A stretch of DNA of 59,006 nucleotides from Alphaproteobacteria bacterium UBA828 (lineage in GTDB: Bacteria > Pseudomonadota > Alphaproteobacteria > UBA828): positions 1-59,006 of the forward strand of contig DBHM01000027.1 in the NCBI GenBank assembly GCA_002296185.1, given 5' to 3'. The position numbers and the translations under genes are program-made. Positions within the stretch are counted from its first letter, which is position 1, and each line of letters starts with the position of its first letter. Shown here one piece after another: positions 911 to 21,661 of the stretch. The notes beneath the pieces are model-generated. The model made no database searches. It was given only the letters and a program-made list of their open reading frames with translations, and was not told the DNA's origin.

Positions 911-988
911 ATGTTATCAGTAAATGCCTAAGTCGGAAAATGACATTTGATTTATTATTAAAAATTTTTTTATGATAGTTTAAGTAAA

Positions 989-2951: not shown

Positions 2952-3009
2952 ATAAATTCACCTAGAATTAAAAATAATTTTATTTATCAATAATATTCAA
3001 TATTTAAGC

Positions 3010-3861
3010 TTACGCTATTTTATCAAATTTTTTAGCAAGTTTATGCGCTGCTTCCCGTCTTTTTTCAGGTGATACATCAGGATCAAGAACCTTCCGTAAT
3101 TCAACAACATTACCAATAACTAGGATAGCTGGAGGCTCAATTTCTTCCTTTATAGCTACCTTGGCTAGTTTACCAAGAGGTGCTTCTATTACTTGTTGAT
3201 TAGCTAAAGTGCCGTTAGCTACTATAGCAGAGGGTGTGGAGGCTGAAAGTCCATTTTCAATTAGTTTTTTTGCTACATTTTCTAAATGAGCAAGCGCCAT
3301 ATAAAAAATTAAAGTTGGAGCCCCTGCTGCTATTGCTTTCCAGTCGAGGCTATCAGGTATATTGCCTCCAGCACCATGGCCTGTTAAAAAAGTTACACCA
3401 TGTCCAGTAGTGCGATGTGTTACGGGTATGCCTGAGGCAGCAAGCCCTCCTACACTCGCAGTTATTCCAGGTACTAATCTAAATGGTATATTTTCTGCTG
3501 CTAACGCCAAGGCCTCCTCACCTCCGCGGCCGAACATAAATGGATCTCCACCTTTTAGACGTAAAACACGTTTCCCAGATTTTGAGCATTCAATTAGACG
3601 CTGAATAATGTCACGTTGCTTAAAAGAGGGTTTCCCTCCTCTTTTACCGGCATATTCCAAAACTACTCCTGCTGGCACTAATTGAAGTATATTTTTACTT
3701 ACCAAGGCATCATAAATTACTATATCTGCTTGATGTAAGGATCTATACGCACGGAGAGTTAGTAGCCCTGGGTCACCTGGGCCGGCCCCTACTAGCCATA
3801 CAGAGCCAGTTTCAAAACTGGGGTTATCAATTTCTGATATATCGATGATACTACGTTTCAT
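3010..3861 (-). CDS. cobA: Uroporphyrinogen-III C-methyltransferase (SUMT)
   Basis: VWLVGAGPGDPGLLTL, YDALV, RLKGGDPFMFGRGGEE, PGITA; no dehydrogenase/chelatase domain. Confidence 0.95.
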   Translation of the reverse strand: MKRSIIDISEIDNPSFETGSVWLVGAGPGDPGLLTLRAYRSLHQADIVIYDALVSKNILQLVPAGVVLEYAGKRGGKPSFKQRDIIQRLIECSKSGKRVLRLKGGDPFMFGRGGEEALALAAENIPFRLVPGITASVGGLAASGIPVTHRTTGHGVTFLTGHGAGGNIPDSLDWKAIAAGAPTLIFYMALAHLENVAKKLIENGLSASTPSAIVANGTLANQQVIEAPLGKLAKVAIKEEIEPPAILVIGNVVELRKVLDPDVSPEKRREAAHKLAKKFDKIA

Positions 3862-3872
3862 GATGATCCAAT

Positions 3873-3888
3873 GCTATCCTGAGATAGC
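3873..3888. promoter_or_regulatory. Inverted repeat GCTATC-N4-GATAGC in the cobA/cbiD divergent spacer; possible operator
   Basis: Perfect 6-bp arms read directly from the 52-bp spacer; function not shown. Confidence 0.25.
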
Positions 3889-3913
3889 TCTTTGGGCTAT
3901 ATAAACTTTACTT

Positions 3914-5059
3914 ATGATGATAAACGACCAAGAATCAATATTTGGCCATGGAGAGGGCCTGAGGGGTCCAGATTCTGCGAATTTGCGCAGAGGATGGACA
4001 ACGGGTGCCTGTGCTGCGGCAGCTGCCAAGGCGGCTACAGAGGGCCTATTGGGGGTGATTTTTCCTGATCCAATTACTATAGATCTTCCTAGGGGTATAA
4101 GGCAGCCTTTTAATATTACTGCATTTGAGTTTGGTCACAAGTGGGCTAGGGCAAGTGTAAGAAAAGATGCTGGCGACGATCCGGATGTAACACATGGAGC
4201 TTTAATTGTTTGTGAAGTACGTATTACTGAGCCTGGGTCAGGAATCAGATTTATAGCTGGTTCAGGTGTTGGCACAGTGACACGACCAGGTCTCCCTATT
4301 TCTGTTGGAGAGCCTGCTATAAGTCCAGGACCAAGAAAATACATAAAGGAGGCTATCGAAAGCGTTACTGAAAGGGAAAATAAACCATGCAATTTTGATA
4401 TTATCATATCAGTGCCGGGCGGAGAAAAACTTGCTCAAAAGACTCTAAATGAGAGGCTTGGGATTAAGGGTGGAATTTCAATTCTTGGTACGACGGGAGT
4501 GGTTATTCCATATTCCTGCGGTGCATGGATAGCATCGATACACAGAGGGGTTGATGTCGCTCGTGCTGCAGGGCTAACACACATTGCAGCAGCTACAGGA
4601 AGAACATCAGAAACAGGTGTAAAAGACTTACATCAATTATCTGACCAAGCAATTATAGATATGGGTGATTTTGCAGGTGGATTTTTAAAATATCTTTCAA
4701 AGAATCCGTTGCCTCGGGTAACAATAGCTGGGGGGTTTGCAAAAATAGCTAAGCTAGCAAGAGGGCACTTAGATCTTCACTCTAAAAGAAGTCAGATAGA
4801 TATAGAATACCTAGTTACTAGCCTGTCCACCTTAGGTGCTAGTGATGAAATAATAAATGAAGCTAAAATGTCTAGTAGTGGAGCTGAAATATTATTGATT
4901 GCCCAAAAAGCTAAACTACCCCTAGCAAATCTTGTTGCTGTTGACAGTTGTAAGGTCGTGATTCAAACGCTCTCATCTGGCGATCATGCAAGTGGCATCT
5001 CTGTTGATGTGGTTATTTTTGATAGAAACGGTGTTTTGGTTGGACATGCAAATGGATAA
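3914..5059 (+). CDS. cbiD: Cobalt-precorrin-5B C1-methyltransferase
   Basis: LRRGWTTGACAAAAAKAA, KDAGDDPDVTHG, GVGTVTRPGL, LGIKGGISILGTTG. Confidence 0.96.
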   Translation: MMINDQESIFGHGEGLRGPDSANLRRGWTTGACAAAAAKAATEGLLGVIFPDPITIDLPRGIRQPFNITAFEFGHKWARASVRKDAGDDPDVTHGALIVCEVRITEPGSGIRFIAGSGVGTVTRPGLPISVGEPAISPGPRKYIKEAIESVTERENKPCNFDIIISVPGGEKLAQKTLNERLGIKGGISILGTTGVVIPYSCGAWIASIHRGVDVARAAGLTHIAAATGRTSETGVKDLHQLSDQAIIDMGDFAGGFLKYLSKNPLPRVTIAGGFAKIAKLARGHLDLHSKRSQIDIEYLVTSLSTLGASDEIINEAKMSSSGAEILLIAQKAKLPLANLVAVDSCKVVIQTLSSGDHASGISVDVVIFDRNGVLVGHANG

Positions 5060-5813
5060 GGGGCCTATACTAATTCTCGGTGGAACTCACGAAGCGAGAA
5101 AATTAGCAGAGCATCTGACAAAAGAATTGGGTAATAATTCAGTAATAAGCTCTCTTTCTGGTGCTACAGAAAAACCAAAAAGTTTACCTGGGAAATCACG
5201 CATAGGTGGTTTCGGAGGGGCTGAAAAATTTGGAGAATTTCTGCTAGATAATCGAGTTATAGCAGTAATAGACGCAACTCATCCTTTTGCTGAACGTATA
5301 TCTGTCAACGCTATAACTGCTTGTAGAAAAGTTAATATACCATTGATCAGCCTACAAAGAAAACCATGGCAGAAACATAAAAATGACAATTGGATAGTGG
5401 TGCGTGATTTACCTGCTGCTGTCGATTTAGCGCCGAATTTTGGACTAAGAGTATTCCTGAGTTTAGGACCAAGAGCCATTTCATATTTTTCCAGGCATAC
5501 CGATTTGTGGTTTCTTGTGAGGGTGATTGATGCACCGGAAGAGCCTATAAAACTAAAAAATTATAAACTAGTTTTAGGGCGTGGCCCTTTTAATTTAGAA
5601 GATGAGTTAAATCTATTAAAAAGAAACAATATAGATTTGCTAATTACTCGAAATAGTGGGGGCGAAGCTTCATATGCTAAGATCTTAGCCGCTAGGAAAC
5701 TAAGTCTTCCAGTGGTTATCATCAAACAACCAATAAACATAAATCTTCATGTGGCTAATAGTTTAGATGATACACTTAATTTAATATCATCTCAGTTAGG
5801 CCGAAAAATATGA
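5052..5813 (+). CDS. cobK: Precorrin-6A/cobalt-precorrin-6A reductase
   Basis: ILILGGTHEAR, RIGGFGG, IDATHPFA, RGPF, TRNSGG; start moved to ATG 5052, an 8-nt overlap with the cbiD stop. Confidence 0.94.
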   Translation: MDKGPILILGGTHEARKLAEHLTKELGNNSVISSLSGATEKPKSLPGKSRIGGFGGAEKFGEFLLDNRVIAVIDATHPFAERISVNAITACRKVNIPLISLQRKPWQKHKNDNWIVVRDLPAAVDLAPNFGLRVFLSLGPRAISYFSRHTDLWFLVRVIDAPEEPIKLKNYKLVLGRGPFNLEDELNLLKRNNIDLLITRNSGGEASYAKILAARKLSLPVVIIKQPININLHVANSLDDTLNLISSQLGRKI

Positions 5814-6547
5814 GTATGATCCTTGCTATATAGCAAGCTATCAATTGATTGGTCGCTATTTAATGATTTACTTATAATTATTAGTGCCGTTCGAGTGATT
5901 CCTGCTGATTTCACTTTACCCTTGATGTCTTGGAGAGTGCCATAAATAATTTTTTCGTCAGGCCATGATATACGGTAGCCAATGATGATAGGGCAATCAG
6001 CTCCATAATAAGGGATCAGTGTTTTTACAACTTTTGCGAGGTTATTAATAGAAAGATGAATTGCTAGTGCTGCTCCAGTCGAAGCGAGGTTGCTTAATTC
6101 TTCTCCTGGAGGCATCTTTGAAGCGCGAACAGCTGTCCGGGTTAGTATAATCGTTTGAGTCAAACTGGGTGAAGTTAGCTCTTTTTTCATGGCCGCAGCA
6201 GCTGCGGCAAATGCTGGTACGCCAGGAGTTATATCGTAATCGATATCCAGTTTTTTGAGTCGATAAATTTGTTCATTAACTGCTCCGTATAGGGAAGTAT
6301 CACCTGAGTGGAGTCGCACAATAATATCTCCACTTGCATGATATTTTATAATTACTTCTATTATTTCATCTAAAGTCATCGTGGCTGTATTTATAACAGT
6401 ATGAGCGTTTTTAGCTTGTTTTACTAAGTCTTCAGGTACTAGTGATCCTGCGTACAAAACGACTTGGGCTTTTTTTAAAAGATTGAGCCCTCTCACAGTG
6501 ATTAAGTCTGGTGCTCCGGGCCCGGCGCCAATAAAATGAACTGTCAT
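5792..6547 (-). CDS. cobM: Precorrin-4 C11-methyltransferase
   Basis: VHFIGAGPGAPDLITVRG, YAGSLV, RLHSGDTSLYGA, PGVPAF; 3' end overlaps cobK convergently by 22 nt. Confidence 0.96.
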   Translation of the reverse strand: MTVHFIGAGPGAPDLITVRGLNLLKKAQVVLYAGSLVPEDLVKQAKNAHTVINTATMTLDEIIEVIIKYHASGDIIVRLHSGDTSLYGAVNEQIYRLKKLDIDYDITPGVPAFAAAAAAMKKELTSPSLTQTIILTRTAVRASKMPPGEELSNLASTGAALAIHLSINNLAKVVKTLIPYYGADCPIIIGYRISWPDEKIIYGTLQDIKGKVKSAGITRTALIIISKSLNSDQSIDSLLYSKDHTHIFRPN

Positions 6548-8355
6548 TGACTGCTCACATTTTTTTGATGATATCCACGTGGAGTATAAATGTATGATCT
6601 CCCCGCATTACGCGCATTACGTGTTTCATGGTTACCAATTATTAAAATGGTAAGCATATCTATTAGGTCTTCATTTAGATCTCTAAGTTTGAGCATTTTA
6701 ACATTTTCATTTCTCCGCCCCAAGCAGCGCGCAACAATCACCGGGCATTCTGGTCCTCTATTATTTTTAATAATATGTAGAGCTTTTTTGAGTGGTTGCC
6801 TCCTATTTTTTCCTGCGGGGTTATAGAGTGCAATGACAAACCCAGACTCAATAGCAGCAGAAACTCTTTTTTCAATTATTTTTAAGGGTGTTAAAAGGTC
6901 AGATAATGAAATCGCGCAAAAGTCATGTCCAAGTGGAGCCCCTGCACGAGCAGATGCTGCTTGCATGGCGCTTATGCCTGGTTCGACGACTACATCAACG
7001 AATCTCCATTCAGAGTCTTCAATCTGTTCAAGAAGTTCAAAAACTAGACTTGCCATTCCATAAATACCAGCATCACCAGAGCATATTAGAGCAGTATCTT
7101 CACCTTTTGCGGCTAAGTTTAGAGCCATACTAGCTCTCTTAGTTTCATCTCCGATGGTAAAAGAGTGCTTAAGACAATTGATGTTTAGATGCTCAATAAG
7201 TTCTAAATATCCAACATACCCTACATGGTGTTGGCTTTCATTGAGTGCTTTGAGAACCGCAGGTGTCATCCAGCTTTTCTGACCTGGCCCAAGCCCTACT
7301 ATGGTAAGTCGGCCAATTCTTCGTCCAACCTCTTCTATATTTATACTATTTTTTGACTGCGCTATAGAGCACGTTACACCTTTTGCGCTCTGTTTTGGCG
7401 CAATGAGGGAAGATTCTGATCCCGCTGCACACAGGGCAGCTCCTTCTGCAACCCCGTAACAGCCAACAGCTTCAAATACGGTATTTGAGGGATTTATTAA
7501 TCGTAAACGTTGTTCATTTAATTGATGAACATCAAAAAATATAAGAGGTACCTCAAGGTGCGAAGATAGGTCGCGAATTGCAACTTCATCTGCTTTTAAG
7601 TCTATTGATGTTATACATGCAATCGAGGATGGAGATATTTTATTATCCTTTATCATTTTCTCAGCAAGATTAATTAATTCTTTTGATTTTACTTCTCTTT
7701 CGCAACCTACGCCTATTGCAATTGTTTTTGGTATTAGCACTACATCACCACAAGCATCGGATTTATCACTAAGAGTTATAGAAAGTTTGGCGTCTTCATT
7801 CCATTTATATTGATCTTTTATCCACGAGCAGTCTCCGGATTCAACTTGAAGGCGTACTGGCTTATCGTTTAAAATTGCGTTTGTAACTTCCTTAACCTTA
7901 CTTTTATGGTTGATTTCCCACCCTGGTGGAGGATCATCAAAGGCAGTATCAATTAATGTTTCGCTTGCTGTGGTGTTCACTAGAGACGCTTGTAACTTTA
8001 AAGCAATATCCTTTCCGATTTTATTTCCCCCTCTGTGGCCCCCTAGTATGGGTATAACAAAAGATCCATCAGTCGATATGGCTATTACTGGTGGTTCTTC
8101 TAGCTTATTAGATATAATTGGTGCCAAGGCTCGAATGAGAATACCACTAGAGCATATCCCTATAATTGGTCTTCCTGCCAAAAAAAGTGACTGAAGAAGA
8201 GGTGAGATATTTTCAAAAGCACTGTCTTTATTTCCGGCTATATTTTTAGGTGCGTATATCTCACAAGGGAAGCATGCTGCACTCAAAGTTTTTGCGATAT
8301 TAGCACTATAGGTATTAAGTGTAATGACTGCCGCGAGATTGTTTCGAGTATTCAT
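6544..8355 (-). CDS. cobJ: CbiG (cobalt-precorrin-5A hydrolase)/CobE domains fused to precorrin-3B C17-methyltransferase
   Basis: N-half: GILIRALAP, EPPVIAI, GGHRGGN, TTASE, GVGC, GVAEGAAL (CbiG). C-half: VGLGPG, SGDAGIYGMA, PGISAMQAASARAGAPLGHDFCAISLSDLLTP, ALYNP, YTPRGY (CobJ/CbiH). Confidence 0.92.
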   Translation of the reverse strand: MNTRNNLAAVITLNTYSANIAKTLSAACFPCEIYAPKNIAGNKDSAFENISPLLQSLFLAGRPIIGICSSGILIRALAPIISNKLEEPPVIAISTDGSFVIPILGGHRGGNKIGKDIALKLQASLVNTTASETLIDTAFDDPPPGWEINHKSKVKEVTNAILNDKPVRLQVESGDCSWIKDQYKWNEDAKLSITLSDKSDACGDVVLIPKTIAIGVGCEREVKSKELINLAEKMIKDNKISPSSIACITSIDLKADEVAIRDLSSHLEVPLIFFDVHQLNEQRLRLINPSNTVFEAVGCYGVAEGAALCAAGSESSLIAPKQSAKGVTCSIAQSKNSINIEEVGRRIGRLTIVGLGPGQKSWMTPAVLKALNESQHHVGYVGYLELIEHLNINCLKHSFTIGDETKRASMALNLAAKGEDTALICSGDAGIYGMASLVFELLEQIEDSEWRFVDVVVEPGISAMQAASARAGAPLGHDFCAISLSDLLTPLKIIEKRVSAAIESGFVIALYNPAGKNRRQPLKKALHIIKNNRGPECPVIVARCLGRRNENVKMLKLRDLNEDLIDMLTILIIGNHETRNARNAGRSYIYTPRGYHQKNVSSQ

Positions 8356-9056
8356 TTCCAGGCATCTCCTCTTCGGTGTGCCATAATTATTGAGAAATAT
8401 GGAACTGGAGCGGATATTTCAGAAAGTGGAACTATTCTCTCTTCCTTAAGCCCTGCGCGTTCAATGTATTGTGCATTGTCCATAAGACCTGATTTTTTTA
8501 GTGCTGAAAGTATTTTTTTTATGTGACGTCCAATTTTGACAACAACAACTCCTTCTGCTACCTCCATTTTTTTTATTATTTGTTCTTCGGGTAGTGTCCC
8601 TGGAATAATAACCAAGCAATCATTTTTTGTTACTAGTGGTTTTCCAAGAATTGCTGCACAAGCCATTGGAGAGGATACTCCGGGGACTACAACTACTTTT
8701 TCCGTCTTTATTAATCGTTCAAAAAGATAAATGAAAGAGCCATATAGAAAAGGATCTCCTTCGCAAATTGCCGCAATATCAGAACCGGAATCAAGTAATT
8801 TAGAAATCTTAGTTGTAGCTTCACCATAAACCTCGTCAGAAGGAAACTGAGAGTTTTCGAGCGGCATTTTGATAGCAATTTCTGTGTATTTTTTATCCAA
8901 ATGGGGATCTATAATTTTTCGTGCAAGAGAGTCCCCGTCTAGTGGAGCGGGATAAACTAGAATATCTACAGATTTAAGAATTTTAAGTGCTTTGACGGTT
9001 ATTAGGTCGGAATCCCCGGGTCCAATTCCTAATCCGTATAGGGTTCCCTTAGTCAC
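8352..9056 (-). CDS. cobI: Precorrin-2 C20-methyltransferase
   Basis: GTLYGLGIGPGDSDLITVKA, EGDPFLYGSF, PGVSS, VPYFS. Confidence 0.95.
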   Translation of the reverse strand: MTKGTLYGLGIGPGDSDLITVKALKILKSVDILVYPAPLDGDSLARKIIDPHLDKKYTEIAIKMPLENSQFPSDEVYGEATTKISKLLDSGSDIAAICEGDPFLYGSFIYLFERLIKTEKVVVVPGVSSPMACAAILGKPLVTKNDCLVIIPGTLPEEQIIKKMEVAEGVVVVKIGRHIKKILSALKKSGLMDNAQYIERAGLKEERIVPLSEISAPVPYFSIIMAHRRGDAWK

Positions 9057-10267
9057 GATTTATCTACTTCTAGCTGTGTTATGGGGTTTAGGGGTTTCCA
9101 AGCGACATGAGATCCAATTGGTGTTGCTCGTGAAATTGATATTCTATTCAGCTTTCCTCCATAATTTTCATAGAATTTCTGCAAGGTATATTCACTTTTG
9201 ATAGTAACGGCATTTGCCACTAATCGTCCTCCTGGTTTTAGCCGTTGCCAGCATTCATCAAGAACACCTGGAATGCTAATACCTCCTCCAACAAAAATAG
9301 CATCTGGGTCAGGAAGAGAAATGAAGGAATTAGGAGCTAGACCATGTTCAATTTTTAGTCTTGGTACACCAAGGTTATTTGCATTCTCAGCAATAAGTAC
9401 ACAAACATCTTTGTTTTTCTCCAGGGCTATAGCTTCATTGTTGGAGTTAGCTAAAAGCCATTCAATACTGATAGATCCAGAGCCTGCGCCTATATCCCAG
9501 AGTAATCCGGTAAGCATCGGCTTTAGCGCAGATAATGTAAGAACTCGTATCTCTCTTTTTGTCAATAAGCTGCTATTACGGAATGCCTTATCAGGAAGAC
9601 CTAATCCCCCCGCAAACCTCTTTGCTCGATCCTCAGATTTACACTCAATTGCTATAGTATTTAATTTTTCTAAATGTGTTTCTTTCCAGTTTTGAGCTGT
9701 ACAGGTTATTTTTTTTTCTTTACTTCCACCCAAGTTCTCAAAAACATGAATTATACTTTTCCCATATCCTAAATTTGTTAGTTCTTTTGCTACTTTAATT
9801 GGGGTTTCTCCGTTTTGAGTGAGCGAAATAATACGAGCATTATCAGCAAGTTTACTACGCAATATTTCCAAAGGTCTGCCATGAAGAGATATCAGGTCAA
9901 CCTTATTACTTGGCCAGAGCAAGCGTGAACAAACCATGCTAAAAGCAGATAAGTATGGGGTAACAGACATTTCGGCGCCTGAGAAGTGTTCCGATAAAGT
10001 AACCCCAATGCCAAAATGCATAGGATCTCCTGTAGAGAGTACAACTACAGACATTCCTTTATGAGCCGCTATTTCATTTATAGTTTTAGAGATAGGTGTT
10101 TGCCAAACAATACGTTTAAAATCTTGAGGAAGAGCAGACTCAATTATTTTAAAATGTCTTTCAGCCCCAACTATCACCCGGGCCTCTTTGATTAATTTTA
10201 AAGAGTGGGTGCATAGACTCTCTTCCCCGTTTTCACCAATCCCAATGATATTTAACCAGGCACTCAT
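9053..10267 (-). CDS. cobL: Precorrin-6Y C5,15-methyltransferase (decarboxylating), CbiE-CbiT fusion
   Basis: WLNIIGIGENG, STGDPMHFGIG, SLHGR, GLPD, LTKREIR, WDIGAGSGSI, GGRLVANAVT. Confidence 0.95.
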   Translation of the reverse strand: MSAWLNIIGIGENGEESLCTHSLKLIKEARVIVGAERHFKIIESALPQDFKRIVWQTPISKTINEIAAHKGMSVVVLSTGDPMHFGIGVTLSEHFSGAEMSVTPYLSAFSMVCSRLLWPSNKVDLISLHGRPLEILRSKLADNARIISLTQNGETPIKVAKELTNLGYGKSIIHVFENLGGSKEKKITCTAQNWKETHLEKLNTIAIECKSEDRAKRFAGGLGLPDKAFRNSSLLTKREIRVLTLSALKPMLTGLLWDIGAGSGSISIEWLLANSNNEAIALEKNKDVCVLIAENANNLGVPRLKIEHGLAPNSFISLPDPDAIFVGGGISIPGVLDECWQRLKPGGRLVANAVTIKSEYTLQKFYENYGGKLNRISISRATPIGSHVAWKPLNPITQLEVDKS

Positions 10268-10893
10268 TAGATTCCCCTTGCTAGGGCATTAAGGGCTGCT
10301 ACAGCCATAGCACTTCCTCCCAATCTACCTCTCACTGCAATAAATGGAATACCTCTATTATCATTAATCAGTGCCTCTTTGCTTTCTGAGGCGCCGACAA
10401 AACCTGGCGGTGTTGCGATTACTAGGGCGGGTGTATTGTTTGGTGTGTCAATAATTTCAAGAAGACGAAAGAGAGCTGTAGGAGCATTTCCAATAACTAC
10501 AATAGAATTCTTTAGAAAGGGTTGCCAGAGATCAACTGCCGCCATAGCTCGGGTAATTTTAGTGTTAGTACTAATTTTTCGAGTCCTATCATCATTCAGT
10601 GTGCATAAGATATTATTATTTTTTGGAAGGGCTGAAAGATCTATTCCAGCCGTTACCATATTAACATCTACTATTATTGTTGCTCCTTCGCTGAGTGCTT
10701 GCTGACCTGATGAGACCGCATTTTTTGAAAAATCAATATAATTGTGTAACTCTGTTATTCCGCAGGTATGTATCATACGGCTAGCAATTGGACGCATATT
10801 TTTAGGTAAAATTTCGAGATTTATTTCGCGCTCAATAATATTGAATGAACGCCTAGTAATCTCCTCTGGATCTCTAATATAATTATTATTCAT
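10267..10893 (-). CDS. cobH: Precorrin-8X methylmutase
   Basis: RMIHTCG, VIGNAPTALF, PPGFVGASESKEAL, RGRLGGSAMAVAALNA; ATG 10893 overlaps the cbiX stop by 8 nt (alternative start 10905). Confidence 0.95.
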   Translation of the reverse strand: MNNNYIRDPEEITRRSFNIIEREINLEILPKNMRPIASRMIHTCGITELHNYIDFSKNAVSSGQQALSEGATIIVDVNMVTAGIDLSALPKNNNILCTLNDDRTRKISTNTKITRAMAAVDLWQPFLKNSIVVIGNAPTALFRLLEIIDTPNNTPALVIATPPGFVGASESKEALINDNRGIPFIAVRGRLGGSAMAVAALNALARGI

Positions 10894-11812: not shown

Positions 11813-11858
11813 TGATTTCTCCTAAATCCTGGGAATTGACTGTGATGGATATGAGCAT
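11802..11858 (-). CDS. Putative 18-aa linker ORF MLISITVNSQDLGEINGR overlapping the cbiX start
   Basis: AAGGAG (11870-11865) lies 6 nt before ATG 11858; TGA at 11804-11802 overlaps the cbiX ATG by 11 nt. Not in the ORF track; translation unproven. Confidence 0.3.
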   Translation of the reverse strand: MLISITVNSQDLGEINGR

Positions 11859-11870
11859 CATGCTCTCCTT

Positions 11871-12896
11871 ATGGAAAATTTAATGATATGGTACTTCCCT
11901 GACTGGTCTTTTATGGACTGGGCCACAGGCCCTGGCAATGCCTTGATTCTTATTTTTGCCCTTATTCTTGATGGAATAATAGGCGATCCTCGCTGGTTTC
12001 CTCATCCAGTTCGGGGTATAGGGATAATTATTCAGCTCTTCGACAAAGTTTTGAATCGTAGTATTTTTAGTGAGACCCTTAAAAAGGCATTGGGTCTTTT
12101 GACTGTTATTTTTATTGTTGGAGCAATGTTTGTAGCCGGATGGTTTCTTGGAGGATATGCCAAAAGCATTCCTTATTGTTGGCTCATTGAACTCTTTTTT
12201 ATTACTATTTTGATGGCTCAGCGGAGTATGGTAGATCATGCAACTTTGGTGGTCACGCAAATGCGCCATAATGGTATTTCTGGCGGTAGGGCTGCTGTAG
12301 GCCTCATAGTTGGAAGAGAAGTCTCTAAATTGGATGAAAAAGGTATTTCGCGAGCAACCATTGAGAGTACCGCAGAGAGCTTTACTGATGGAGTTTTTGC
12401 TCCGATATTCTGGTATCTGCTCTTGGGGTTGCCGGGTCTTTTCGCTTATAAATCTATTAGTACCCTCGATAGTATGGTTGGATATAAAACAACAAAATAT
12501 ATGGCTTTTGGTATGGCTGCGGCAAAGACTGATGACTTTGCCAGCTGGATTCCTGCCCGTATCGCAGGGCTGATTATTGCTTTTGCAGCAATATTTATTC
12601 CTGGTGCATCTTTTAGGGGTGCGTTTTCTATTTTCTTCCGGGACTCTAGAAATCATAGTTCTCCCAATGCAGGGTATACCGAAGCTGCAATGGCCGGTGC
12701 TTTGGGTCTGAGACTTCTTGGCCCCAGGAAGTATAGTGGTGTTATTTCTGAAGACACTAGATGGTTGGGTGCGGGGGCTAAGGACGCAAATAAGGATGAC
12801 ATTATCCAAGCTATAAAGATTTTTTCTGTTGCTTGTTTTATCACTGGCGTACTGGTCGCTATATTGGCGGTAATAATTCAGTTTAGTATTTCCTAG
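11871..12896 (+). CDS. cobD: Adenosylcobinamide-phosphate synthase CbiB/CobD
   Basis: LDGIIGDPRWFPHPV, IVGRE, ESTAESFTDGVFAP, YKSISTLDSMVGY, SPNAGYTEAAMAGAL; exact start uncertain because ATG 11871 has no SD. Confidence 0.95.
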   Translation: MENLMIWYFPDWSFMDWATGPGNALILIFALILDGIIGDPRWFPHPVRGIGIIIQLFDKVLNRSIFSETLKKALGLLTVIFIVGAMFVAGWFLGGYAKSIPYCWLIELFFITILMAQRSMVDHATLVVTQMRHNGISGGRAAVGLIVGREVSKLDEKGISRATIESTAESFTDGVFAPIFWYLLLGLPGLFAYKSISTLDSMVGYKTTKYMAFGMAAAKTDDFASWIPARIAGLIIAFAAIFIPGASFRGAFSIFFRDSRNHSSPNAGYTEAAMAGALGLRLLGPRKYSGVISEDTRWLGAGAKDANKDDIIQAIKIFSVACFITGVLVAILAVIIQFSIS

Positions 12897-12911
12897 TGGG
12901 CTAACGTGCAT
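11880..12911 (-). other. 343-codon in-register antisense ORF spanning all of cobD; possible overlapping gene or translated spacer
   Basis: Listed in the ORF track; codon-aligned with cobD, which has no TTA/CTA/TCA after codon 4; ATG 12911 overlaps the cobQ stop by 11 nt. No recognisable protein motif. Confidence 0.35.
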
Positions 12912-14424
12912 GGGCTATCTCTATAATTCTATCAATATCAATTGATCCTTCAATTTTTTTTGCCAGACCATTTAGTGCTTCTTCCACTTCATTGTTCCAG
13001 TTTATCAATATATTATTAGCTCTTTCCTCTTCTCTCAAAGACGCAAGCCAAGCATGCCTGAAGGAGTCATTTTGGAAGATACCATGAATATAAGTTCCAG
13101 AAATATTTCCGCTCAGCGAAATTGCTCCGTCAATTTTTCCTGTACTTAATTTACACAACGGGCGTTCTAAGTCTGGTCCGTCTGTTTGGCCCATATGCAT
13201 TTCATATCCCTGGATCTCCGTATTAGTTTGTATGTGTTTACCGCTTACTTCTAAGAGAGTTTTTTCTTCTGTGATTCTAGTTGAAACATTAAGTAGTCCA
13301 AGACCTTCTTCTGTCCCTGGCGTGCCTTCAACGCCTATCTCGTCGTTAATTATTTTTCCTAGTATTTGAAATCCTCCACAGAGGCCTAGAATGATTCCCC
13401 CGCGACGAGCAAAAGCAATTATATCTGTATCCCAACCTTCCAATCTTAGATCTTTCAAATCAGCTCTTGTTGCTTTTGACCCAGGAATAATTAGTGCATC
13501 TATATTGGTGGGGATAACTTGCCCTGGTTGCAAAAAACTTACTTTAACATCTGGTTCTGCTATTAGAGGATCAATATCATCAAAATTTGAGATACGTGAT
13601 AGGCGAACAACCATTACATGAAGTGGGTCCAAATTATTTTTATTGGGAGGTTTATTGTACTCTTTATTTTTTTTATCTATACTTGATGAATCTTCTTCAG
13701 GCAGTATCGCTGCCTCAGATAGCCAGGGGACAACCCCAAGAAGGGGAGCTTTTATCCTATTTTCTAGTATAGTTTTTGCATCATCAAATAAGGATGTGTC
13801 GCCTCTAAACTTATTAACAATAAGCCCTTTTATCCTCTTTCGTTCAGAATCTGAAAGTAATTCGAAGGTTCCTACTAGACTCGCTATAACCCCCCCTCTT
13901 TCTATGTCGCCCACTAAAACTACGGGTAAATCTGCTGCTTCAGCGAATCCCATATTCGCCAAGTCTCCTTCACGTAGATTTACTTCTGCAGTGCTCCCAG
14001 CTCCCTCAACCAGAACAATATCAGCCTTTGAGCTAATAGAATAAAAACTATCGAGAACATGAGGCAGTAAAGTAGGTTTAAGAGAATGATATTCTCGCGC
14101 CTGTGCATTACATAAAACCCTTCCACGTACGATAACTTGTGAACCAATTTCACTTTGAGGTTTGAGTAAAATTGGATTCATATCTGATATTGGTAGGACC
14201 CCTGCTGCTCGTGCCTGTAACGCCTGTGCTCTACCAATTTCACCCCCTTCACAAATCGCAGCATTATTTGACATGTTTTGGGGTTTGAAGGGATATACAT
14301 TAAGCCCTCTAATTGCTAATGCTCGCGCTAATCCGCTAACTAACAAAGATTTTCCGACATCAGAACCAGTTCCTTGAATCATTACTGAAGGGGTATTACC
14401 CAATTTTGTTGGCAATGATGACAT
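12901..14424 (-). CDS. cobQ: Cobyric acid synthase
   Basis: MIQGTGSDVGKS, FKPQNMSNNA, EIGRAQALQA, VEGAGS, RISNFDD, GLCGGFQILG, GYEMHMG, GTYIHG. Confidence 0.97.
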   Translation of the reverse strand: MSSLPTKLGNTPSVMIQGTGSDVGKSLLVSGLARALAIRGLNVYPFKPQNMSNNAAICEGGEIGRAQALQARAAGVLPISDMNPILLKPQSEIGSQVIVRGRVLCNAQAREYHSLKPTLLPHVLDSFYSISSKADIVLVEGAGSTAEVNLREGDLANMGFAEAADLPVVLVGDIERGGVIASLVGTFELLSDSERKRIKGLIVNKFRGDTSLFDDAKTILENRIKAPLLGVVPWLSEAAILPEEDSSSIDKKNKEYNKPPNKNNLDPLHVMVVRLSRISNFDDIDPLIAEPDVKVSFLQPGQVIPTNIDALIIPGSKATRADLKDLRLEGWDTDIIAFARRGGIILGLCGGFQILGKIINDEIGVEGTPGTEEGLGLLNVSTRITEEKTLLEVSGKHIQTNTEIQGYEMHMGQTDGPDLERPLCKLSTGKIDGAISLSGNISGTYIHGIFQNDSFRHAWLASLREEERANNILINWNNEVEEALNGLAKKIEGSIDIDRIIEIAHAR

Positions 14425-14426
14425 GG

Positions 14427-15053
14427 CTAAAATTCTATGCCTTTTTGTGCCTTTACACCTTGACGGAAAGGGTGTTTCACCTCACTCATTTCTGTGACAA
14501 GATCTGCTATTTCCATAAGTTCGGGTTTTGCGTTTCTGCCTGTTGCGACAATATGCAGTTCCTTTCTTCTAGTTGATAGTATTTCAATGACACTTCTAAT
14601 CGGTAGATAGTCGTACCTGAGTACAATATTAATCTCGTCTAGTATTATCATGTTGTAGCTAGTGTCTTTGATAAGCTCTTGTGCCTTCATCCATGCTGAT
14701 TCAGCGGCGGTAATATCTCTTTGTCTGTCTTGGGTATCCCAGGTAAACCCTTCACCCATTACTGAGATGGTGCAAAATTCGGGGAATTTTTCTAAAACAA
14801 CTCTTTCACCAGTTTCCCATTTACCTTTAACAAATTGAACTATGCCTACTTTCATCCCGTTTCCTATAGCCCTAGAGGCTAATCCAAATGCAGCTGTTGA
14901 CTTTCCTTTACCCTTTCCGGTGTGAACAATAAGCAGACCTTTCTCTATAGTTTTGGTAGCTAAAACCCTGTCTCTGGCAGCTTTTTTCTTAGCCATACGA
15001 TCAGCGTGATGGCGGTTCAACTCAGACTCACTCATTTGATCACGTTTCTTCAA
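14427..15053 (-). CDS. cobO: Cob(I)yrinic acid a,c-diamide adenosyltransferase
   Basis: HTGKGKGKSTAAFG, QFVKG, GEGFTW, LDEIN, TGRNA, KHPF...AQKGIEF; start may be ATG 15035. Confidence 0.96.
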   Translation of the reverse strand: MKKRDQMSESELNRHHADRMAKKKAARDRVLATKTIEKGLLIVHTGKGKGKSTAAFGLASRAIGNGMKVGIVQFVKGKWETGERVVLEKFPEFCTISVMGEGFTWDTQDRQRDITAAESAWMKAQELIKDTSYNMIILDEINIVLRYDYLPIRSVIEILSTRRKELHIVATGRNAKPELMEIADLVTEMSEVKHPFRQGVKAQKGIEF

Positions 15054-15058
15054 TTGTT

Positions 15059-18000
15059 TTATTCCTCTATCTTATAATTTAAGACCTCATCGATTAAAGC
15101 TGCATACTGGTTACTTTGTGGCTTCCAAAGATTTCTATCAACTGCTTCCCTAAATCTTGAGGCTATTTCTTTTAACGCTGATGGATTGGCGTTTAAAATG
15201 AAGTCGTGTACTTCTTGGTTTACTATATACGCATCAAATAATTGTTCAAAATGATGGTTTTCAACGGCATTTGTAGTTGCTGCGAATGCGAATAAATAGT
15301 CAAGCGTTGCTGAAATTTCAAAGGCACCCTTATATCCATGTTTCATGACGCCTCTAATCCATTTTGGATTGGCAGCCCTTCCTCTAACAACTCTACTAAT
15401 TTCTTCACTTAGGGAACGAATCACAGGATTTGCAGGATTACTGTGGTCATTATGATATATGGAGGGTGCTTTACCTTTTTGGGACTTTTGGACAGCTGCG
15501 GATAAACCACCTTCAAATTGGTAATAATCATCACTGTCTAATATATCGTGCTCTCGATTGTCTTGATTTTGAATTATTGCTTGGACTCTACTTAAGCGTT
15601 CTTCAAATAGTTCGTAATCTGGTTCTCCCTGGCAGTCTGCTCCGTAGACCCATCCTCCCCAGGTTATATAGGCATCCGCTAAATCCTCCCTTCTTTTCCA
15701 CCCACTCTCATCAATTAGTGCCTGTAATCCTGCCCCATAGGACCCGGGCATGGAGCCGAAAATTCGTCGGCTTGCTCTAAGGGCTGCTGTATTTTTGTCT
15801 ACTCCCTTTCGTTGCATCAAGTTTGTTTCAAGTTTAACTTGTGCTGCAAAGGGATTTATAAACTCATTCTCGTCTAGTTTGCTAATAGCTCGGGTTGCAG
15901 AGTCAAAAAGAGAAATGAGTCCTGGAAAAGCATCGCGGAAGAAACCTGATATGCGTAAAGTTACATCTACTCGAGGCCGGTCCAACAAGTTTTGAGGAAG
16001 GATTTCAAATCCTGTTACTCTGCCGTTATGATTGTCCCATGTTGGACGTGCGCCAATTAGAGCCATTGCTTGAGCGATATCATCTCCACCAGTTCTCATA
16101 CAAGCAGTTCCCCAAGCGCTAATAGCCATATTTTTTGGCCATTCTCCGTGCTCCTGAGCGTATTGTTCGCAAACCCTTTGGGCAGATTTCCAGCCTAGTA
16201 GCCATGCTGCATTAGTAGGTAGTGAACGAGTATCAACAGAATAAAAATTTCTTCCAGTAGGTAAAACTTCTGGCCTTCCCCTACTCGGTGCGCCAGAAGG
16301 CCCAGGAGGAACAAAACGGCCATCAAGGGCGGTCAAAAGCCCCTCTACTTCCTTAGGTCCGCTTTCATATAAAGCTGGACGTATGCGAGAATTAATTTCC
16401 TTAAGAATAGGAAGTGTTTTTGACCATTTAGCTTTGGGTGGTTGCTCCATCGCGACAAGTTTAGAAGCCAATATCTCGAGCCGCTCCACTGTATCTCCAT
16501 AAGTTCTCCAAGAATTTTCGTTAGCCAGCTCGTAAGGTTTCGGTCCATCCCATATTGCCCCCATATCGCAATCTAAGGGGTCAAAGCCGAGCCCTAAATC
16601 ATTACTTAGTGCTTGAGTTATAGAACAGTCTTTTTCCTCAGATCCTCTTGGTACGCGAGTCAGGGAAACAAGAAAATCTGCAGTTTTTGATTCATCAGGT
16701 GTCTTACCAAATATATGTAGGCCATCACGGATTTGCATTTCTTTAATCTCGCATAAGTATGTATCAACTTTTGATAATGCTGTCTCAGTGCTATCATTCT
16801 CATTAATTCCACAATCCAGGTCTAAGCCTATAGATTGGACGAGACTCAAAATATTCTCTGATAGCGGCTTTAGCCGGCGTTTATCTAGGTGGCTCGCCTC
16901 AAAATATTCATCAATTAGTGTTTCTAATTCACCTAATTCACCATGTGTGTCAGCTCTTGTTAGTGGGGGTGTAAGGTGGTCAATAATGACAGCCTGAGTC
17001 CGTCGTTTCGCTTGGCTACCTTCTCCAGGGTCATTGACAATGAACGGATAAATATTGGGAGTAGGACCGAGTATTGCATCCGGATAACAATCGGCTGATA
17101 GAGCTAATGATTTCCCAGGAAGCCACTCTAGACTCCCGTGTTTTCCAACATGAACTATTGCATCTGCGGAGAAATTTTTTCTAGCCCAGAAATACGCTGC
17201 GAAGTATCCGTGGGGCGGAACAAGTGCTGGATCGTGATAAGTTTTAGTTGGATCAATATTATATCCCCTCGCAGGTTGTATCATGACACAAATTTTTCCG
17301 AAGCATTTAGCTGGTAGAGAAAAATGATCTCCCAATTTGTCTTTTCTAAAAAATGGATCATTAATAGGTCCCCCCCATCTTTTTTCAACAGCGGACCTGA
17401 TTTCTTCTGATAGAGAAGAAAAAAATAATTGATAATCCGTTAAGGTAACCTTTTCTGTATATTTGTGCTTCTCACTTACTTCTTTGTTGTTTGTTACACC
17501 ATTTAGTAAGTGATCCATGAGACCTTTTCCTGTTAGGCAACTAGTGCCTACATCATAACCCTCTTCTCCAAGTATTCTTATGATTCTAGCAGTACTTTCG
17601 GGGGTATCTAATCCAACACCATTTCCAATTCTCCCATTACGGTTTGGATAATTTGCTAATACCATTAATATTTTTTTCTTATATCTTGGAGTTTTTCTTA
17701 AGTGCGCCCATGATTTAGTAAGCTTTGATACAAACTTTATACGTTCTTCATCGGGCTTTAATGATATTAGAGATGTCTGAGTTTGATCGTCACGTTTATC
17801 TTCTGTTTTAAACGCAATTGCACGAGAAAAAATTCTCCCGTCAACCTCTGGAAGTGCGACATGCATAGCTATATCTCTTGCAGTGAGTCCATACGTTTCT
17901 TCCTTCCACATTTCAATTGTTTGACTCGAAAAAGCTACCTGAAGAATGGGAGCGTCAAAATCGTCTAAGGGGGATTTCCTAGTCTTCCCTGGCGATGAAA

Positions 18001-18817
18001 CTGCAAAAGCACAGGAATTGATAATGACTTCTATATCAGTAGTCTCAAATGCGGTTTTAAGAAAAGCTGCTGCAGAAGGATCTCTAAGGCTAGATATAAA
18101 TATAGGGAGTGGGTTAAGATTTAGTTTTTGGAGCTCGTTAATTAGACTTTTAATTGGAGATACATGATCTGCTTGAACTAAAGCTCTATAAAAAAGTATA
18201 GGTATTACAGGTTGATCATTTACCCAGTTATCAAAAATAGTATTTGCAGTATCTATTTGATTATAATTTAGTTCAGGACAATAAAATCCGGCTTTTGGGA
18301 GTAGTTTAGGCTCTTCGTATGTTATTGGTATTCCTATAATATTCGTACTATATCTCAAAAAATTATAGGCATTTTCACTTCCTCCGTGGATTAAGAATTG
18401 CCATAATTTTCTTACAATCTCTTCAGGTAGTGTACTATTCTTTATTAATTGAATGTCAGGTGTGTCATCGCCAGGTAGGAATGCTAAAGCTATATTTTTT
18501 TCTCTACATATTATTGAGAGTCTTTCCACGCCATAGGGCCAATAGCTTGTTCCTCCAAGTATACGAATAACAACCAGTTGTGAATGCTGAATGACTTGGT
18601 CTACCCAGAGATCTATAGACAGGTTGTGAGACAAGTGCATTAGGTTAGCAAGTCTTAAGCTAGGTTTGTTGGCATCCAGCCTTGCGTATGCTTTTGCCAA
18701 AGCGCTTATCTCAGTATCTGCAGCTGAAGCAAAAATAATGTCACCAGGTGTTTGATCAAGGTCTACCGCTTCATTGCTATCTGCAATATTTCCAGGTTTT
18801 GCTGCGAGCAAATGCAC
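15059..18817 (-). CDS. cobN: Cobaltochelatase subunit CobN
   Basis: 1252 aa; MHLLAA start, ALPEVDGRI, NYPNRNGRIGNGVGLDTP, HVGKHGSLEWLPGK, PFIVNDPGEGSQAKRR, LPTGRNFY, DILDSDDYY, NPKWI. Confidence 0.97.
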   Translation of the reverse strand: MHLLAAKPGNIADSNEAVDLDQTPGDIIFASAADTEISALAKAYARLDANKPSLRLANLMHLSHNLSIDLWVDQVIQHSQLVVIRILGGTSYWPYGVERLSIICREKNIALAFLPGDDTPDIQLIKNSTLPEEIVRKLWQFLIHGGSENAYNFLRYSTNIIGIPITYEEPKLLPKAGFYCPELNYNQIDTANTIFDNWVNDQPVIPILFYRALVQADHVSPIKSLINELQKLNLNPLPIFISSLRDPSAAAFLKTAFETTDIEVIINSCAFAVSSPGKTRKSPLDDFDAPILQVAFSSQTIEMWKEETYGLTARDIAMHVALPEVDGRIFSRAIAFKTEDKRDDQTQTSLISLKPDEERIKFVSKLTKSWAHLRKTPRYKKKILMVLANYPNRNGRIGNGVGLDTPESTARIIRILGEEGYDVGTSCLTGKGLMDHLLNGVTNNKEVSEKHKYTEKVTLTDYQLFFSSLSEEIRSAVEKRWGGPINDPFFRKDKLGDHFSLPAKCFGKICVMIQPARGYNIDPTKTYHDPALVPPHGYFAAYFWARKNFSADAIVHVGKHGSLEWLPGKSLALSADCYPDAILGPTPNIYPFIVNDPGEGSQAKRRTQAVIIDHLTPPLTRADTHGELGELETLIDEYFEASHLDKRRLKPLSENILSLVQSIGLDLDCGINENDSTETALSKVDTYLCEIKEMQIRDGLHIFGKTPDESKTADFLVSLTRVPRGSEEKDCSITQALSNDLGLGFDPLDCDMGAIWDGPKPYELANENSWRTYGDTVERLEILASKLVAMEQPPKAKWSKTLPILKEINSRIRPALYESGPKEVEGLLTALDGRFVPPGPSGAPSRGRPEVLPTGRNFYSVDTRSLPTNAAWLLGWKSAQRVCEQYAQEHGEWPKNMAISAWGTACMRTGGDDIAQAMALIGARPTWDNHNGRVTGFEILPQNLLDRPRVDVTLRISGFFRDAFPGLISLFDSATRAISKLDENEFINPFAAQVKLETNLMQRKGVDKNTAALRASRRIFGSMPGSYGAGLQALIDESGWKRREDLADAYITWGGWVYGADCQGEPDYELFEERLSRVQAIIQNQDNREHDILDSDDYYQFEGGLSAAVQKSQKGKAPSIYHNDHSNPANPVIRSLSEEISRVVRGRAANPKWIRGVMKHGYKGAFEISATLDYLFAFAATTNAVENHHFEQLFDAYIVNQEVHDFILNANPSALKEIASRFREAVDRNLWKPQSNQYAALIDEVLNYKIEE

Positions 18818-18820
18818 AAC

Positions 18821-19864
18821 TTAGGCTTCCACTGTTGCAAGAATTTTTTCTATCTCAATTGGACGTTCTGCAATAAATACTAATTGGCTGAATCGTTCTT
18901 CATTAGGCCCCCAATCACGATCATAATGGCGGTCAATTCTTGGCCCTACTGCCTGTAGTACATGGCGACGTGGTTTTCCCTCTATATTAAGAAATCCTTT
19001 GATACGCAAAATATTGTGTTCATTAATTATATCTATTAGTTGATTTTCTAATAACGACGGATCATTAATTACTCCTAGGTTTAGTACAAAACTCTCAAAA
19101 TCTTCGTGCTCATGCTCATCATCATTGTCATGATGAGATTTACGATTTTCAATATCAAGTTCTGAATTTGCCTTTATTCCTGTAATTATAGATGGAGGTA
19201 CCTTGGCATGTTCCGCTATGACTATGGAAACCCCTTTTCTGCTAAAATTTAATAATTTTTCTCTAAGTTTATTCTGCTCTTTTATTTCCAGCTGATCAGC
19301 TTTATTAAGTACTATGAGATCTGCGCAGGCTAATTGATCTTCAAAGACTTCAGAAATTGGACTTTCATGGTCCAGTGAATCATCATCAATTCTTGCGGCC
19401 TCAACAAGCTCTGGGTTATCCGCAAATCGTCCGTCTCTAACGGCCGGTCCGTCGATAACGGCTATAACGCCATCAACAGTTACTCTATGTCGTATTTCTG
19501 GCCAATTAAATGCTTGAACGAGTGGCTTTGGTAAGGCAAGGCCACTCGTTTCTATAACAATATGGTCTGGCAACTCTTCCTGACTCAGAATTTTTTCCAT
19601 TACAGGGAGGAATTCATCAGCAACAGTGCAGCAAATACATCCATTTGCGAGCTCAACTATATCATCGTCGCTACACAGTTCATTCCCACAACCTGATATT
19701 AGTTCACTATCAACCCCTAAGTCTCCAAATTCGTTAATAATAAGGGCAATTTTTTGGCCATTATTCTCTATGAGAAGATTTCTGATAAGGCTAGTTTTAC
19801 CCGAACCTAAGAAACCAGAGATAACAGTAGCAGGGATTTTTTTATTAATTTTATGTAATATCAT
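18821..19864 (-). CDS. cobW: Cobalamin biosynthesis GTPase/metallochaperone
   Basis: SGFLGSGKT, INEFG, NGCICCT (CxCC), ETSG, NKAD, His/acid-rich SHHDNDDEHEHED, LRIKG. Confidence 0.96.
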   Translation of the reverse strand: MILHKINKKIPATVISGFLGSGKTSLIRNLLIENNGQKIALIINEFGDLGVDSELISGCGNELCSDDDIVELANGCICCTVADEFLPVMEKILSQEELPDHIVIETSGLALPKPLVQAFNWPEIRHRVTVDGVIAVIDGPAVRDGRFADNPELVEAARIDDDSLDHESPISEVFEDQLACADLIVLNKADQLEIKEQNKLREKLLNFSRKGVSIVIAEHAKVPPSIITGIKANSELDIENRKSHHDNDDEHEHEDFESFVLNLGVINDPSLLENQLIDIINEHNILRIKGFLNIEGKPRRHVLQAVGPRIDRHYDRDWGPNEERFSQLVFIAERPIEIEKILATVEA

Positions 19865-21384: not shown

Positions 21385-21398
21385 ATTTCTAGCTTGAC

Positions 21399-21621
21399 GT
21401 CCAGGAGGTCTCCTGGCTTGGTGTCATTAACGCTGTCGGCCTTCCCGCGTACTTTGTCTCTAGGGGACAGTTCTGCAGTGACATATTTTGCCAGCCATAA
21501 ATGTGGCATTGGGCATTTAGACAGCGTCTAATTCCTTACAGTTGCGGGGGCAGCACCGGACTAGCAATATTGCATCACCGGCTTCCCTGTCTAGACGTCA
21601 GGGACCAAGAGTAGCCTAGAC
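21399..21621 (-). ncRNA. Cobalamin (AdoCbl) riboswitch upstream of cobU
   Basis: Minus strand shows TGGT...AGGGAAGCCGGTG...TCCGGTGCTGCCCCCGCAACTGT, then CACTG...GGGAAGG and the B12 box AGCCAGGAGACCT; P1 = GUCUAGG (21621-15)/CCUGGAC (21405-399). Confidence 0.95.
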
Positions 21622-21661
21622 TGAGCATAGAAGCGAGTCGAATGATTAAAAGTATAAATTT

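Follow-up and report, generated by a model that had tools for sequence, protein, structure and literature searches.

CbiX in the place of CobG: a widespread alphaproteobacterial type of locus for complete vitamin B12 synthesis

Few microbes make vitamin B12, which limits productivity in the sea, and gene-based surveys sort the producers into "aerobic" and "anaerobic" ones by the markers cobG, cbiX, cbiD and cobN. How is the corrin ring contracted, and when does cobalt enter it, where the markers of both routes occur together? The question is raised by the first 59,006 nucleotides (nt; hereafter, the window) of contig DBHM01000027.1 of Alphaproteobacteria bacterium UBA828 (GCA_002296185.1), in which cbiX, cbiD and a CbiG domain stand beside cobN and cobW, and cobG, cobZ and cobF are missing. 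Vitamin B12 synthesis is encoded in full by a locus of the window whose design, which we denote CbiX-type, is widespread in alphaproteobacteria. Judged by sequence, this design differs from sister clusters with a true CobG, which also carry CbiD and CbiG domains, only by the swap of CbiX for CobG. This comparison is what is new here; the window itself is one more example, from a small marine genome of low GC content (~39%), of a cluster type already noted, not a new kind of system.

The host assembly is a metagenome-assembled genome (MAG) of 1.6 Mb in 30 contigs, 77% complete, and the window is the start of its contig C12. Open reading frame listing and family scans delimited a continuous de novo B12 locus at 989-24375, from cobB to the dimethylbenzimidazole phosphoribosyltransferase gene (cobT). 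This exceeds the range 3010-19864 for which the original prediction, made from the bare sequence, had proposed a hybrid pathway; every gene named in that prediction was found where it had been placed, and the mixed gene set is real. At ~23 kb, the locus takes up >1% of the recovered genome. On the minus strand, overlaps of 1-20 nt or gaps of 2-15 nt between neighboring genes give two tightly coupled operons, one with the order riboswitch-cobU-btuF-cobW-cobN-cobO-cobQ and the other with the order cbiX-cobH-cobL-cobI-cbiG/cobJ-cobM, headed by cbiX. A promoter and terminator scan of positions 800-13200 gave counts no higher than in shuffled sequence. The genes for building the corrin ring and for inserting cobalt are the following.

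3010-3861, minus strand: cobA, uroporphyrinogen-III C-methyltransferase without the CysG N-terminal domain (NF004790, 291 bits; TIGR01469, 286 bits)
3914-5059, plus strand: cbiD, C1 methyltransferase (NF000849, 441 bits against a cut-off of 348; PF01888)
4986-5813, plus strand: cobK/cbiJ, precorrin-6A reductase (NF005968, 275.5 bits against a cut-off of 231)
5792-6547, minus strand: cobM/cbiF, C11 methyltransferase (TIGR01465, 312.5 bits)
6544-8355, minus strand: complete CbiG fused to the CobJ/CbiH C17 methyltransferase (PF11760, PF01890, PF00590; TIGR01466, 274 bits)
8352-9056, minus strand: cobI/cbiL, C20 methyltransferase (TIGR01467, 205.6 bits against a cut-off of 163)
9053-10267, minus strand: cobL, a fusion of cbiE and cbiT (TIGR02467, 153 bits; TIGR02469, 110 bits)
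10267-10905, minus strand: cobH/cbiC, methylmutase (NF006136, 257 bits)
10886-11812, minus strand: cbiX, two-domain long form, CbiXL (PF01903, 177 bits, two stretches), overlapping cobH by 20 nt
15059-18817, minus strand: cobN, large subunit of the late (class I) cobaltochelatase (TIGR02257, 1603 bits against a cut-off of 822)
18821-19864, minus strand: cobW, cobalt metallochaperone GTPase (TIGR02475, 480 bits against a cut-off of 332)

In the fusion protein, CbiG_N spans residues 54-132, CbiG_C residues 212-332 and the CobJ/CbiH methyltransferase residues 348-598; NF004466 matches across residues 9-335 with 173 bits, and the PDB matches are precorrin-3 methylase (3NUT), a CbiG homolog (3EEQ) and CobE (2W6K). 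The other subunits of the late chelatase, which the original prediction had proposed to look for, are encoded side by side on contig C22 (CobS, 580 bits; CobT, 815 bits; both over the cut-off). Both also exceed the curated cut-offs in the Caulobacter vibrioides control, in which CobN has no match at E <= 1e-100. Hence, neither subunit is a specific marker of B12 synthesis in alphaproteobacteria, and their value as proof of a working late chelatase is weakened.

We compared the window with five clusters that contain a true CobG, from the Azospirillaceae isolate G029 (L115), plasmid p1 of Azospirillum argentinense Az39 (L118), Azotobacter (L116), Caballeronia (L117) and the cyanobacterium Kovacikia (L119); CobG scores 350 bits in L115 and 282 bits in L118. 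All five clusters have the order cobG-cobH-cobI-cobJ, with cobG in the exact slot occupied by cbiX in the window. L115 and L118 have cobH, cobI, cobJ, cobK, cobL and cbiD in common with the window, in the same order around cobH-cobI-cobJ, and L118 additionally has cobW-cobN, cobM, cobA and cobB. The CbiD proteins of these two clusters belong to the same NCBIfam equivalog as that of the window (498 and 497 bits) and are 53-55% identical to it, and no CobF is shown in either cluster. CbiG domains are present as well: CobJ is fused to CbiG_N in L115, L116 and L117 (by Pfam) and in L119 (by BLAST), CbiG_C occurs as a separate CobE in L117 and L118, and CobJ stands alone in L118. The premise of the original prediction that CbiG and CbiD define the early-insertion route therefore fails, because both kinds of domain accompany a true CobG and so do not mark early cobalt insertion. 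By its sequence, CbiX is the only early-route marker in the set, and CbiX versus CobG is the one consistent difference between the two designs. A smaller difference is that the CobG-type fusions checked by Pfam contain only CbiG_N, whereas the window fuses complete CbiG to CobJ; no complete CbiG fusion is found in L115 or L118, which have a true CobG where the window has CbiXL.

The remaining ring enzymes are close between the designs. Identities of CobH, CobI, CobL, CobK, CobM and CbiD to their counterparts in the CobG-type clusters fall within the range of distant CbiX-type clusters, and those of CobJ and CbiG lie at or just under the low end of this range. In a concatenated CobH, CobI, CobJ and CobL tree, which included three CobG-type clusters only and indicates closeness rather than the number or direction of swaps, these three formed one clade (support 99). 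The cob proteins of the window sit on a long branch of the concatenated tree (1.08 substitutions per site). Thus, the survey markers do not sort cleanly, given that CbiD and CbiG domains occur with CobG, and CbiX with CobN, CobS and CobT (CobNST). The comparison narrows the question posed by CbiX and CobNST to a single gene swap between two clusters that are nearly identical in other respects.

Scanning one genome for each species yielded 582 stretches encoding CbiX relatives, of which the best 80 were examined. Nearly all of these 80 come from alphaproteobacteria, including marine and soil Rhodospirillales, Dongia, Devosia, Labrenzia/Roseibium, Aurantimonas and Jiella, along with Sneathiella, Kiloniellaceae, Magnetospirillum, Phaeospirillum and Telmatospirillum, so the statement of the original prediction that similar mixed sets occur in other marine alphaproteobacteria was borne out and extends beyond the sea. 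The order cbiX-cobH-cobL-cobI-cbiG/cobJ-cobM recurs in nearly every locus long enough to judge, often with cobW-cobN-cobO-cobQ-cbiB before the ring genes and cobK-cbiD-cobA-(SCO1)-cobB after them.

The absence of cobG, cobZ and cobF held genome-wide. Profile searches of the assembly found no match to CobG in the host, sulfite- and nitrite-reductase relatives included, although the CobG model picks up such relatives in 11 of 14 control genomes; neither CobF nor a precorrin-2 dehydrogenase of the CysG-N/SirC type (TIGR01470), which the original prediction had also proposed to seek, was found there. At 77% completeness, absence from the host genome alone is weak evidence. We therefore tallied genes across 47-48 genomes that carry the CbiX family of the window. 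Over the respective cut-offs, CobG is present in 1 of 47 carriers, in which cbiX sits outside the cob cluster, and CobF in 3 of 48. CobZ/TcuA-class proteins exceed the cut-off in 4 of 47 and have no match at all in 31. Among 31 genomes searched as relatives (18 from the same family; several closed and the majority complete to 90% or more), CobG exceeded the cut-off in one. That these mostly near-complete relatives also lack CobG supports its absence from the host, and together the tallies indicate that the design as such lacks CobG, CobZ and CobF and that no assembly gap is to blame. CobN (E <= 1e-100) and CobS (E <= 1e-50), in contrast, are each retained in 47 of 48 carriers. A CysG-N domain was detected in 26 of the 48, and the other 22 have no match to TIGR01470.

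In the isolate G029, the CobG-type cluster coexists with a CbiXL family member (L069, 9956-11050; 57% identical) whose gene is separate from the cob cluster and adjoins one for a DUF4198 protein; the DUF4198 family includes periplasmic components of cobalt and nickel uptake.

Could the host contain an oxygenase that these models miss? Two parallel entries would then be used according to conditions, with CbiXL opening an early route when oxygen is scarce or cobalt plentiful and an unrecognised oxygenase, encoded elsewhere, feeding a metal-free late route that ends in CobNST, and facultative organisms are said in a review-type statement to often hold both routes (PMC9227772). The incomplete assembly leaves room for such an enzyme, and contig C29 does encode one TcuA-family flavoprotein of 495 amino acids (179044-180504; 1483-2970 in locus L001). 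This protein scores 260.9 bits with the CobZ_N-term model, below the cut-off of 372.55, and 566 bits with the TcuA model NF006130. It consists of FAD-binding domains only and is encoded between genes for an aldehyde dehydrogenase and a carbonic anhydrase-like protein. The CobZ route of Rhodobacter capsulatus is likewise an alphaproteobacterial late-insertion pathway without CobG, but CobZ is a flavoprotein with Fe-S and heme, whereas the only relative in the host falls below the cut-off and lacks the second part. With no TcuB-like part and no cob neighbors, it was ruled out as CobZ; it has no match (E <= 1e-40) in 31 of 47 carriers. Sub-threshold TcuA-like matches of 241-286 bits occur in about a dozen other carrier genomes. 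Moreover, searches of relatives with closed or almost complete genomes and of cultured carriers found neither CobG nor CobZ, and the 23-kb locus holds no unassigned enzyme gene besides SCO1 and the BtuF-like gene. We therefore regard parallel routes as quite improbable.

The CbiX protein is of the long form. It has two CbiX lobes, with a histidine pair (His12 and His78) in the N-terminal lobe and Arg and Thr at the equivalent positions of the C-terminal lobe, followed by an MNCQLCKYREQ motif and a histidine-rich tail. An alignment of 81 family members shows no variation at Cys10, His12, His78, Met258, Cys260 or Cys263 and little or none in the HHHH run at 283-286; the tail (251-295) is conserved to the same degree as both chelatase lobes. 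CbiX is also the best conserved protein of the ring operon (55-67% identity compared to 33-63% for the others). The cobaltochelatase CbiXL of Bacillus (Priestia) megaterium, which has been characterised by experiment, has an N-terminal histidine pair (His14 and His79), a 4Fe-4S center in an MxCxxC motif and a histidine-rich end (PMC7689651), and by sequence the CbiX of the window, with the same two-lobed layout, carries every reported hallmark of that enzyme. AlphaFold2 modeling (mean predicted local distance difference test score, pLDDT, of 85.7) gave two confident alpha/beta lobes and pLDDT < 60 for residues 254-308, so that the position of Cys260 and Cys263 relative to Cys10 and the active site cannot be read from the model. 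The best structural match, SirB of Bacillus subtilis (target-normalised TM-score 0.85), is also the closest solved structure by sequence (25% identical), whereas the siroheme-type CbiX of Paracoccus (4CCS) shows no sequence match and ranks 45 by fold.

Another possibility is that CbiX serves as a siroheme ferrochelatase or as a cobalt store and is only a passenger in the cob cluster, with cobG missing from the assembly. Class II chelatases are poorly metal-specific (PMC7689651), one alphaproteobacterial CbiX is reported to be a proven siroheme enzyme, and the host genome is incomplete. However, neither CysI/NirA-like nor CysG-N genes were found in the host, and ten related genomes lack both a sulfite-reductase-like gene and a CysG-N gene, yet keep cbiX in the cob cluster, which argues against a function in siroheme synthesis. 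The carriers that do have a homologue of a siroheme-dependent reductase mostly have CysG-N too; in genomes with both positions listed, CysG-N lies within ~3 kb of the sulfite-reductase-like gene. Given also the distance from siroheme-type CbiX and the lack of CobG in 46 of 47 carriers, we attach next to no weight to the passenger explanation and reject siroheme synthesis as the main role; CbiX is here tied to B12.

What, then, does CbiX do in the pathway? We tentatively favor, at slightly less than an even chance, a route in which CbiX inserts cobalt early and an oxygen-independent ring contraction follows, with the role of CobNST left unexplained. CbiX homology, its place in the operon, the lack of a known oxygenase, the fused complete CbiG and the low-oxygen carriers all point to early insertion as far as sequences can. 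With CobG, CobZ and CobF absent from the host and from nearly all carriers, cobalt-dependent contraction is the only known chemistry left for this step, and we infer both early insertion and independence of oxygen on these grounds. The carriers include MAGs of Magnetospirillum, Phaeospirillum and Telmatospirillum, groups that live at little or no oxygen. A class II chelatase dedicated to B12, as an early route needs, is in place, since cbiX is part of the ring operon and no siroheme-dependent enzyme was found. The complete CbiG, with its N- and C-terminal domains fused to CobJ, was counted for the cobalt route; the joint presence of complete CbiG and CbiD is expected of that route too, but does not discriminate, because CobG-type clusters have such domains.

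Under early insertion, CbiXL of the B. megaterium type would place Co(II) into sirohydrochlorin or into the precorrin-2 supplied by CobA. With cobalt bound, methylation of C17 and ring contraction by the CobJ (CbiH-like) domain could proceed without oxygen. CobM would then methylate C11, the fused complete CbiG would open the lactone and remove the two-carbon fragment, CbiD would methylate C1, and CobK, CobL, CobH and CobB would complete the corrin. The cofactor would be finished by the riboswitch-controlled CobW, CobN, CobO, CobQ and CobU together with CbiB, cobalamin synthase (CobS/V) and the phosphoribosyltransferase CobT. In this scheme, CobN, CobW and the chelatase subunits CobS and CobT might act as a second, ATP-driven chelatase on a metal-free fraction of the intermediates, although we know of no source of metal-free intermediates in this background.

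Several observations weigh against early insertion. The precorrin-2 dehydrogenase (SirC/CysG-N) of an early route was not found in the host or in 22 of 48 carriers. An early route should also be independent of a late class I chelatase, whereas CobN, CobW, CobS and CobT are all present; CobN in particular is nearly universal among carriers, strongly conserved and under riboswitch control together with cobW, and a purely early route would not need it. The suggestion of the original prediction that CobN is kept for salvaging or re-metallating metal-free corrins gained no support: complete copies score 1486-1669 bits in the carriers compared to 1567 in the CobG-type genome G029, and conservation on this level in 47 of 48 carriers fits a core rather than a side role. 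NCBIfam scores favor the "precorrin" (metal-free) models for CobI, CobJ and CobH. The ring enzymes are closely related to those of the CobG-type clusters, with similar identities and with short branches (0.05-0.2) between the two types in the CobH, CobI, CobJ and CobL tree, and CbiD, which co-occurs with CobG, is no evidence for cobalt-bound intermediates. CobF, moreover, is encoded in three genomes of this design that lack CobG, twice beside cobB or cobQ. Finally, the Fe-S center and histidine tail are reported to be dispensable for chelation in B. megaterium (PMC7689651), yet here the tail is conserved like the catalytic lobes, which hints at a further role. CobF scores 291-340 bits in these three genomes (L106, Devosia insulae; L107; L105), which lack CobZ as well, and a true CobF would be odd there if the intermediates carry cobalt.

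The same observations can be read the other way round. A late route calls for CobG or CobZ, which were found neither in the host nor in most carriers, and for the deacetylating precorrin-6A synthase CobF, which was not found either, but which the CbiD-bearing CobG-type clusters show to be dispensable; CobN, CobS, CobT and CobW, which a late route also needs, are all there. With cbiX in the cluster slot of cobG (cbiX-cobH-(cobL)-cobI-cobJ compared to cobG-cobH-cobI-cobJ in L115-L119), CbiX itself becomes a candidate for the unrecognised CobG substitute that the original prediction had offered as an alternative. In this case, the route would remain metal-free until CobW and CobNST, the sole productive inserter of cobalt, act on it. 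The tetrapyrrole-binding fold of the chelatase would accommodate precorrin-3A or a closely related compound, the histidine pair and the Fe-S center would prime the contraction by CobJ, directly or via a transient metal, and the intermediates would be metal-free up to hydrogenobyrinic acid a,c-diamide. The almost complete mutual exclusion of cbiX and cobG agrees with such a replacement, as does the commonality of the other ring enzymes, CbiD included, with CobG-type clusters, slight divergence notwithstanding. Retention of CobN and CobW, the missing dehydrogenase, the CobG-like enzymes, CobF in three carriers and the constrained tail, with its invariant or nearly invariant Cys260, Cys263 and His283-286 alongside Cys10, all fit replacement of CobG better than early insertion; CobG itself is said, after work by Schroeder et al. 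in 2009, to work by a 4Fe-4S center and a mononuclear iron. Allochromatium/Chromatium is the classic source of corrinoids lacking a metal. Metal-free corrinoids (hydrogenobalamin) have been isolated from a phototroph, a Chromatium strain (PMC7693184), and if that culture was anoxic, metal-free contraction without oxygen exists in nature. On the other side, redox reactions on the bound substrate are not known from any class II chelatase, the nearest relative with a characterised function is an ordinary cobaltochelatase, and the histidine pair is exactly the one used for chelation. Furthermore, the AlphaFold2 model gives the Fe-S tail no confident position, and complete CbiG fused to CobJ better suits the cobalt route. 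Replacement of CobG by CbiXL is thus a serious but doubtful proposal. That CbiXL is not, or not only, a cobalt inserter but the missing oxygen-independent partner in ring contraction, with intermediates that stay or again become metal-free before insertion by CobW and CobNST, appears unlikely from the sequence data.

The choice between early insertion and these alternatives matters beyond the present locus. If CbiX only inserts cobalt, the universal keeping of a costly ATP-driven chelatase with its chaperone needs explaining; if CbiXL does more, it would represent a third solution to corrin ring contraction, and as a contraction partner it would account for the metal-free corrinoids reported long ago from phototrophic bacteria. 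The design is common to hundreds of alphaproteobacteria, and the remaining interest lies in why CbiX and CobNST travel together. Cultured carriers (Roseibium, Labrenzia, Dongia, Aurantimonas and Devosia) make the question directly testable.

Among characterised systems, the cbi operon of B. megaterium resembles the window in having CbiX inside a corrin operon together with CbiG and CbiD, but it differs in having SirC and a CbiH with its own Fe-S extension, whereas the window keeps CobNST and CobW with no SirC found. To our knowledge, B. megaterium has no CobN, CobW or CobST. In marine roseobacters, cbiX likewise stands in place of cobG in aerobic alphaproteobacteria; cobG and cbiX were treated there as alternative key genes of the aerobic and anaerobic routes and mapped on the phylogeny of the group (bioRxiv 10.1101/2021.01.15.426902). 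It has also been pointed out that cbiX and cobNST are not mutually exclusive and can occur in one genome (Shelton et al. 2019). In both studies, however, the pattern derives from annotations, and neither the retention of CobNST nor the nature of the intermediates is addressed, while specialist reviews treat the two routes as distinct and leave the mixed set undiscussed.

The rest of the locus comprises the genes flanking the ring operon and those for the later steps.

989-2320, minus strand: cobB/cbiA, a,c-diamide synthase (NF002204, 375 bits)
2307-2951, minus strand: SCO1/SenC-type membrane-anchored thioredoxin-fold protein with a CPDIC motif (PF02630, 160 bits)
11871-12896, plus strand: cbiB/cobD, adenosylcobinamide-phosphate synthase (TIGR00380, 229 bits)
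12901-14424, minus strand: cobQ, cobyric acid synthase (NF001989, 601 bits)
14427-15053, minus strand: cobO, corrinoid adenosyltransferase (NF004637, 274 bits)
19880-20821, minus strand: BtuF-like periplasmic-binding-protein homologue (PF01497, 59 bits; weak BtuF and IsdE matches)
20818-21369, minus strand: cobU/cobP, cobinamide kinase/guanylyltransferase (NF004469, 213 bits)
21386-21635, minus strand: cobalamin riboswitch leading the cobU-btuF-cobW-cobN-cobO-cobQ operon (RF00174, 64.8 bits against a gathering score of 31.5)
21662-22297, minus strand: cobC-like protein of the alpha-ribazole phosphatase family, below the cut-off (TIGR03162, 118 bits against 163)
22322-23260, minus strand: cobS/cobV, cobalamin synthase (TIGR00317, 136 bits against a cut-off of 110)
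23347-24375, plus strand: cobT/cobU, dimethylbenzimidazole phosphoribosyltransferase (PF02277, 346 bits)

The cobB frame is open to 2320, and its first ATG, GTG or TTG lies at 2113, with the P-loop ISAPRSGSGKT upstream of this position. Either translation starts, as is probable, at a non-canonical ATC or ATA codon that overlaps the stop of SCO1, or CobB is truncated at its N-terminus.

We know of no role in B12 synthesis for SCO1/SenC proteins, a copper-chaperone type. The gene stands between cobA and cobB in the window and is placed likewise in at least nine related loci, marine and other (L009, L010, L011, L017, L019, L022, L031, the latter without a cobA match, L052 and L064). The BtuF-like gene between cobU and cobW, within the riboswitch-controlled operon, is also present in the close relatives L009, L011 and L017.

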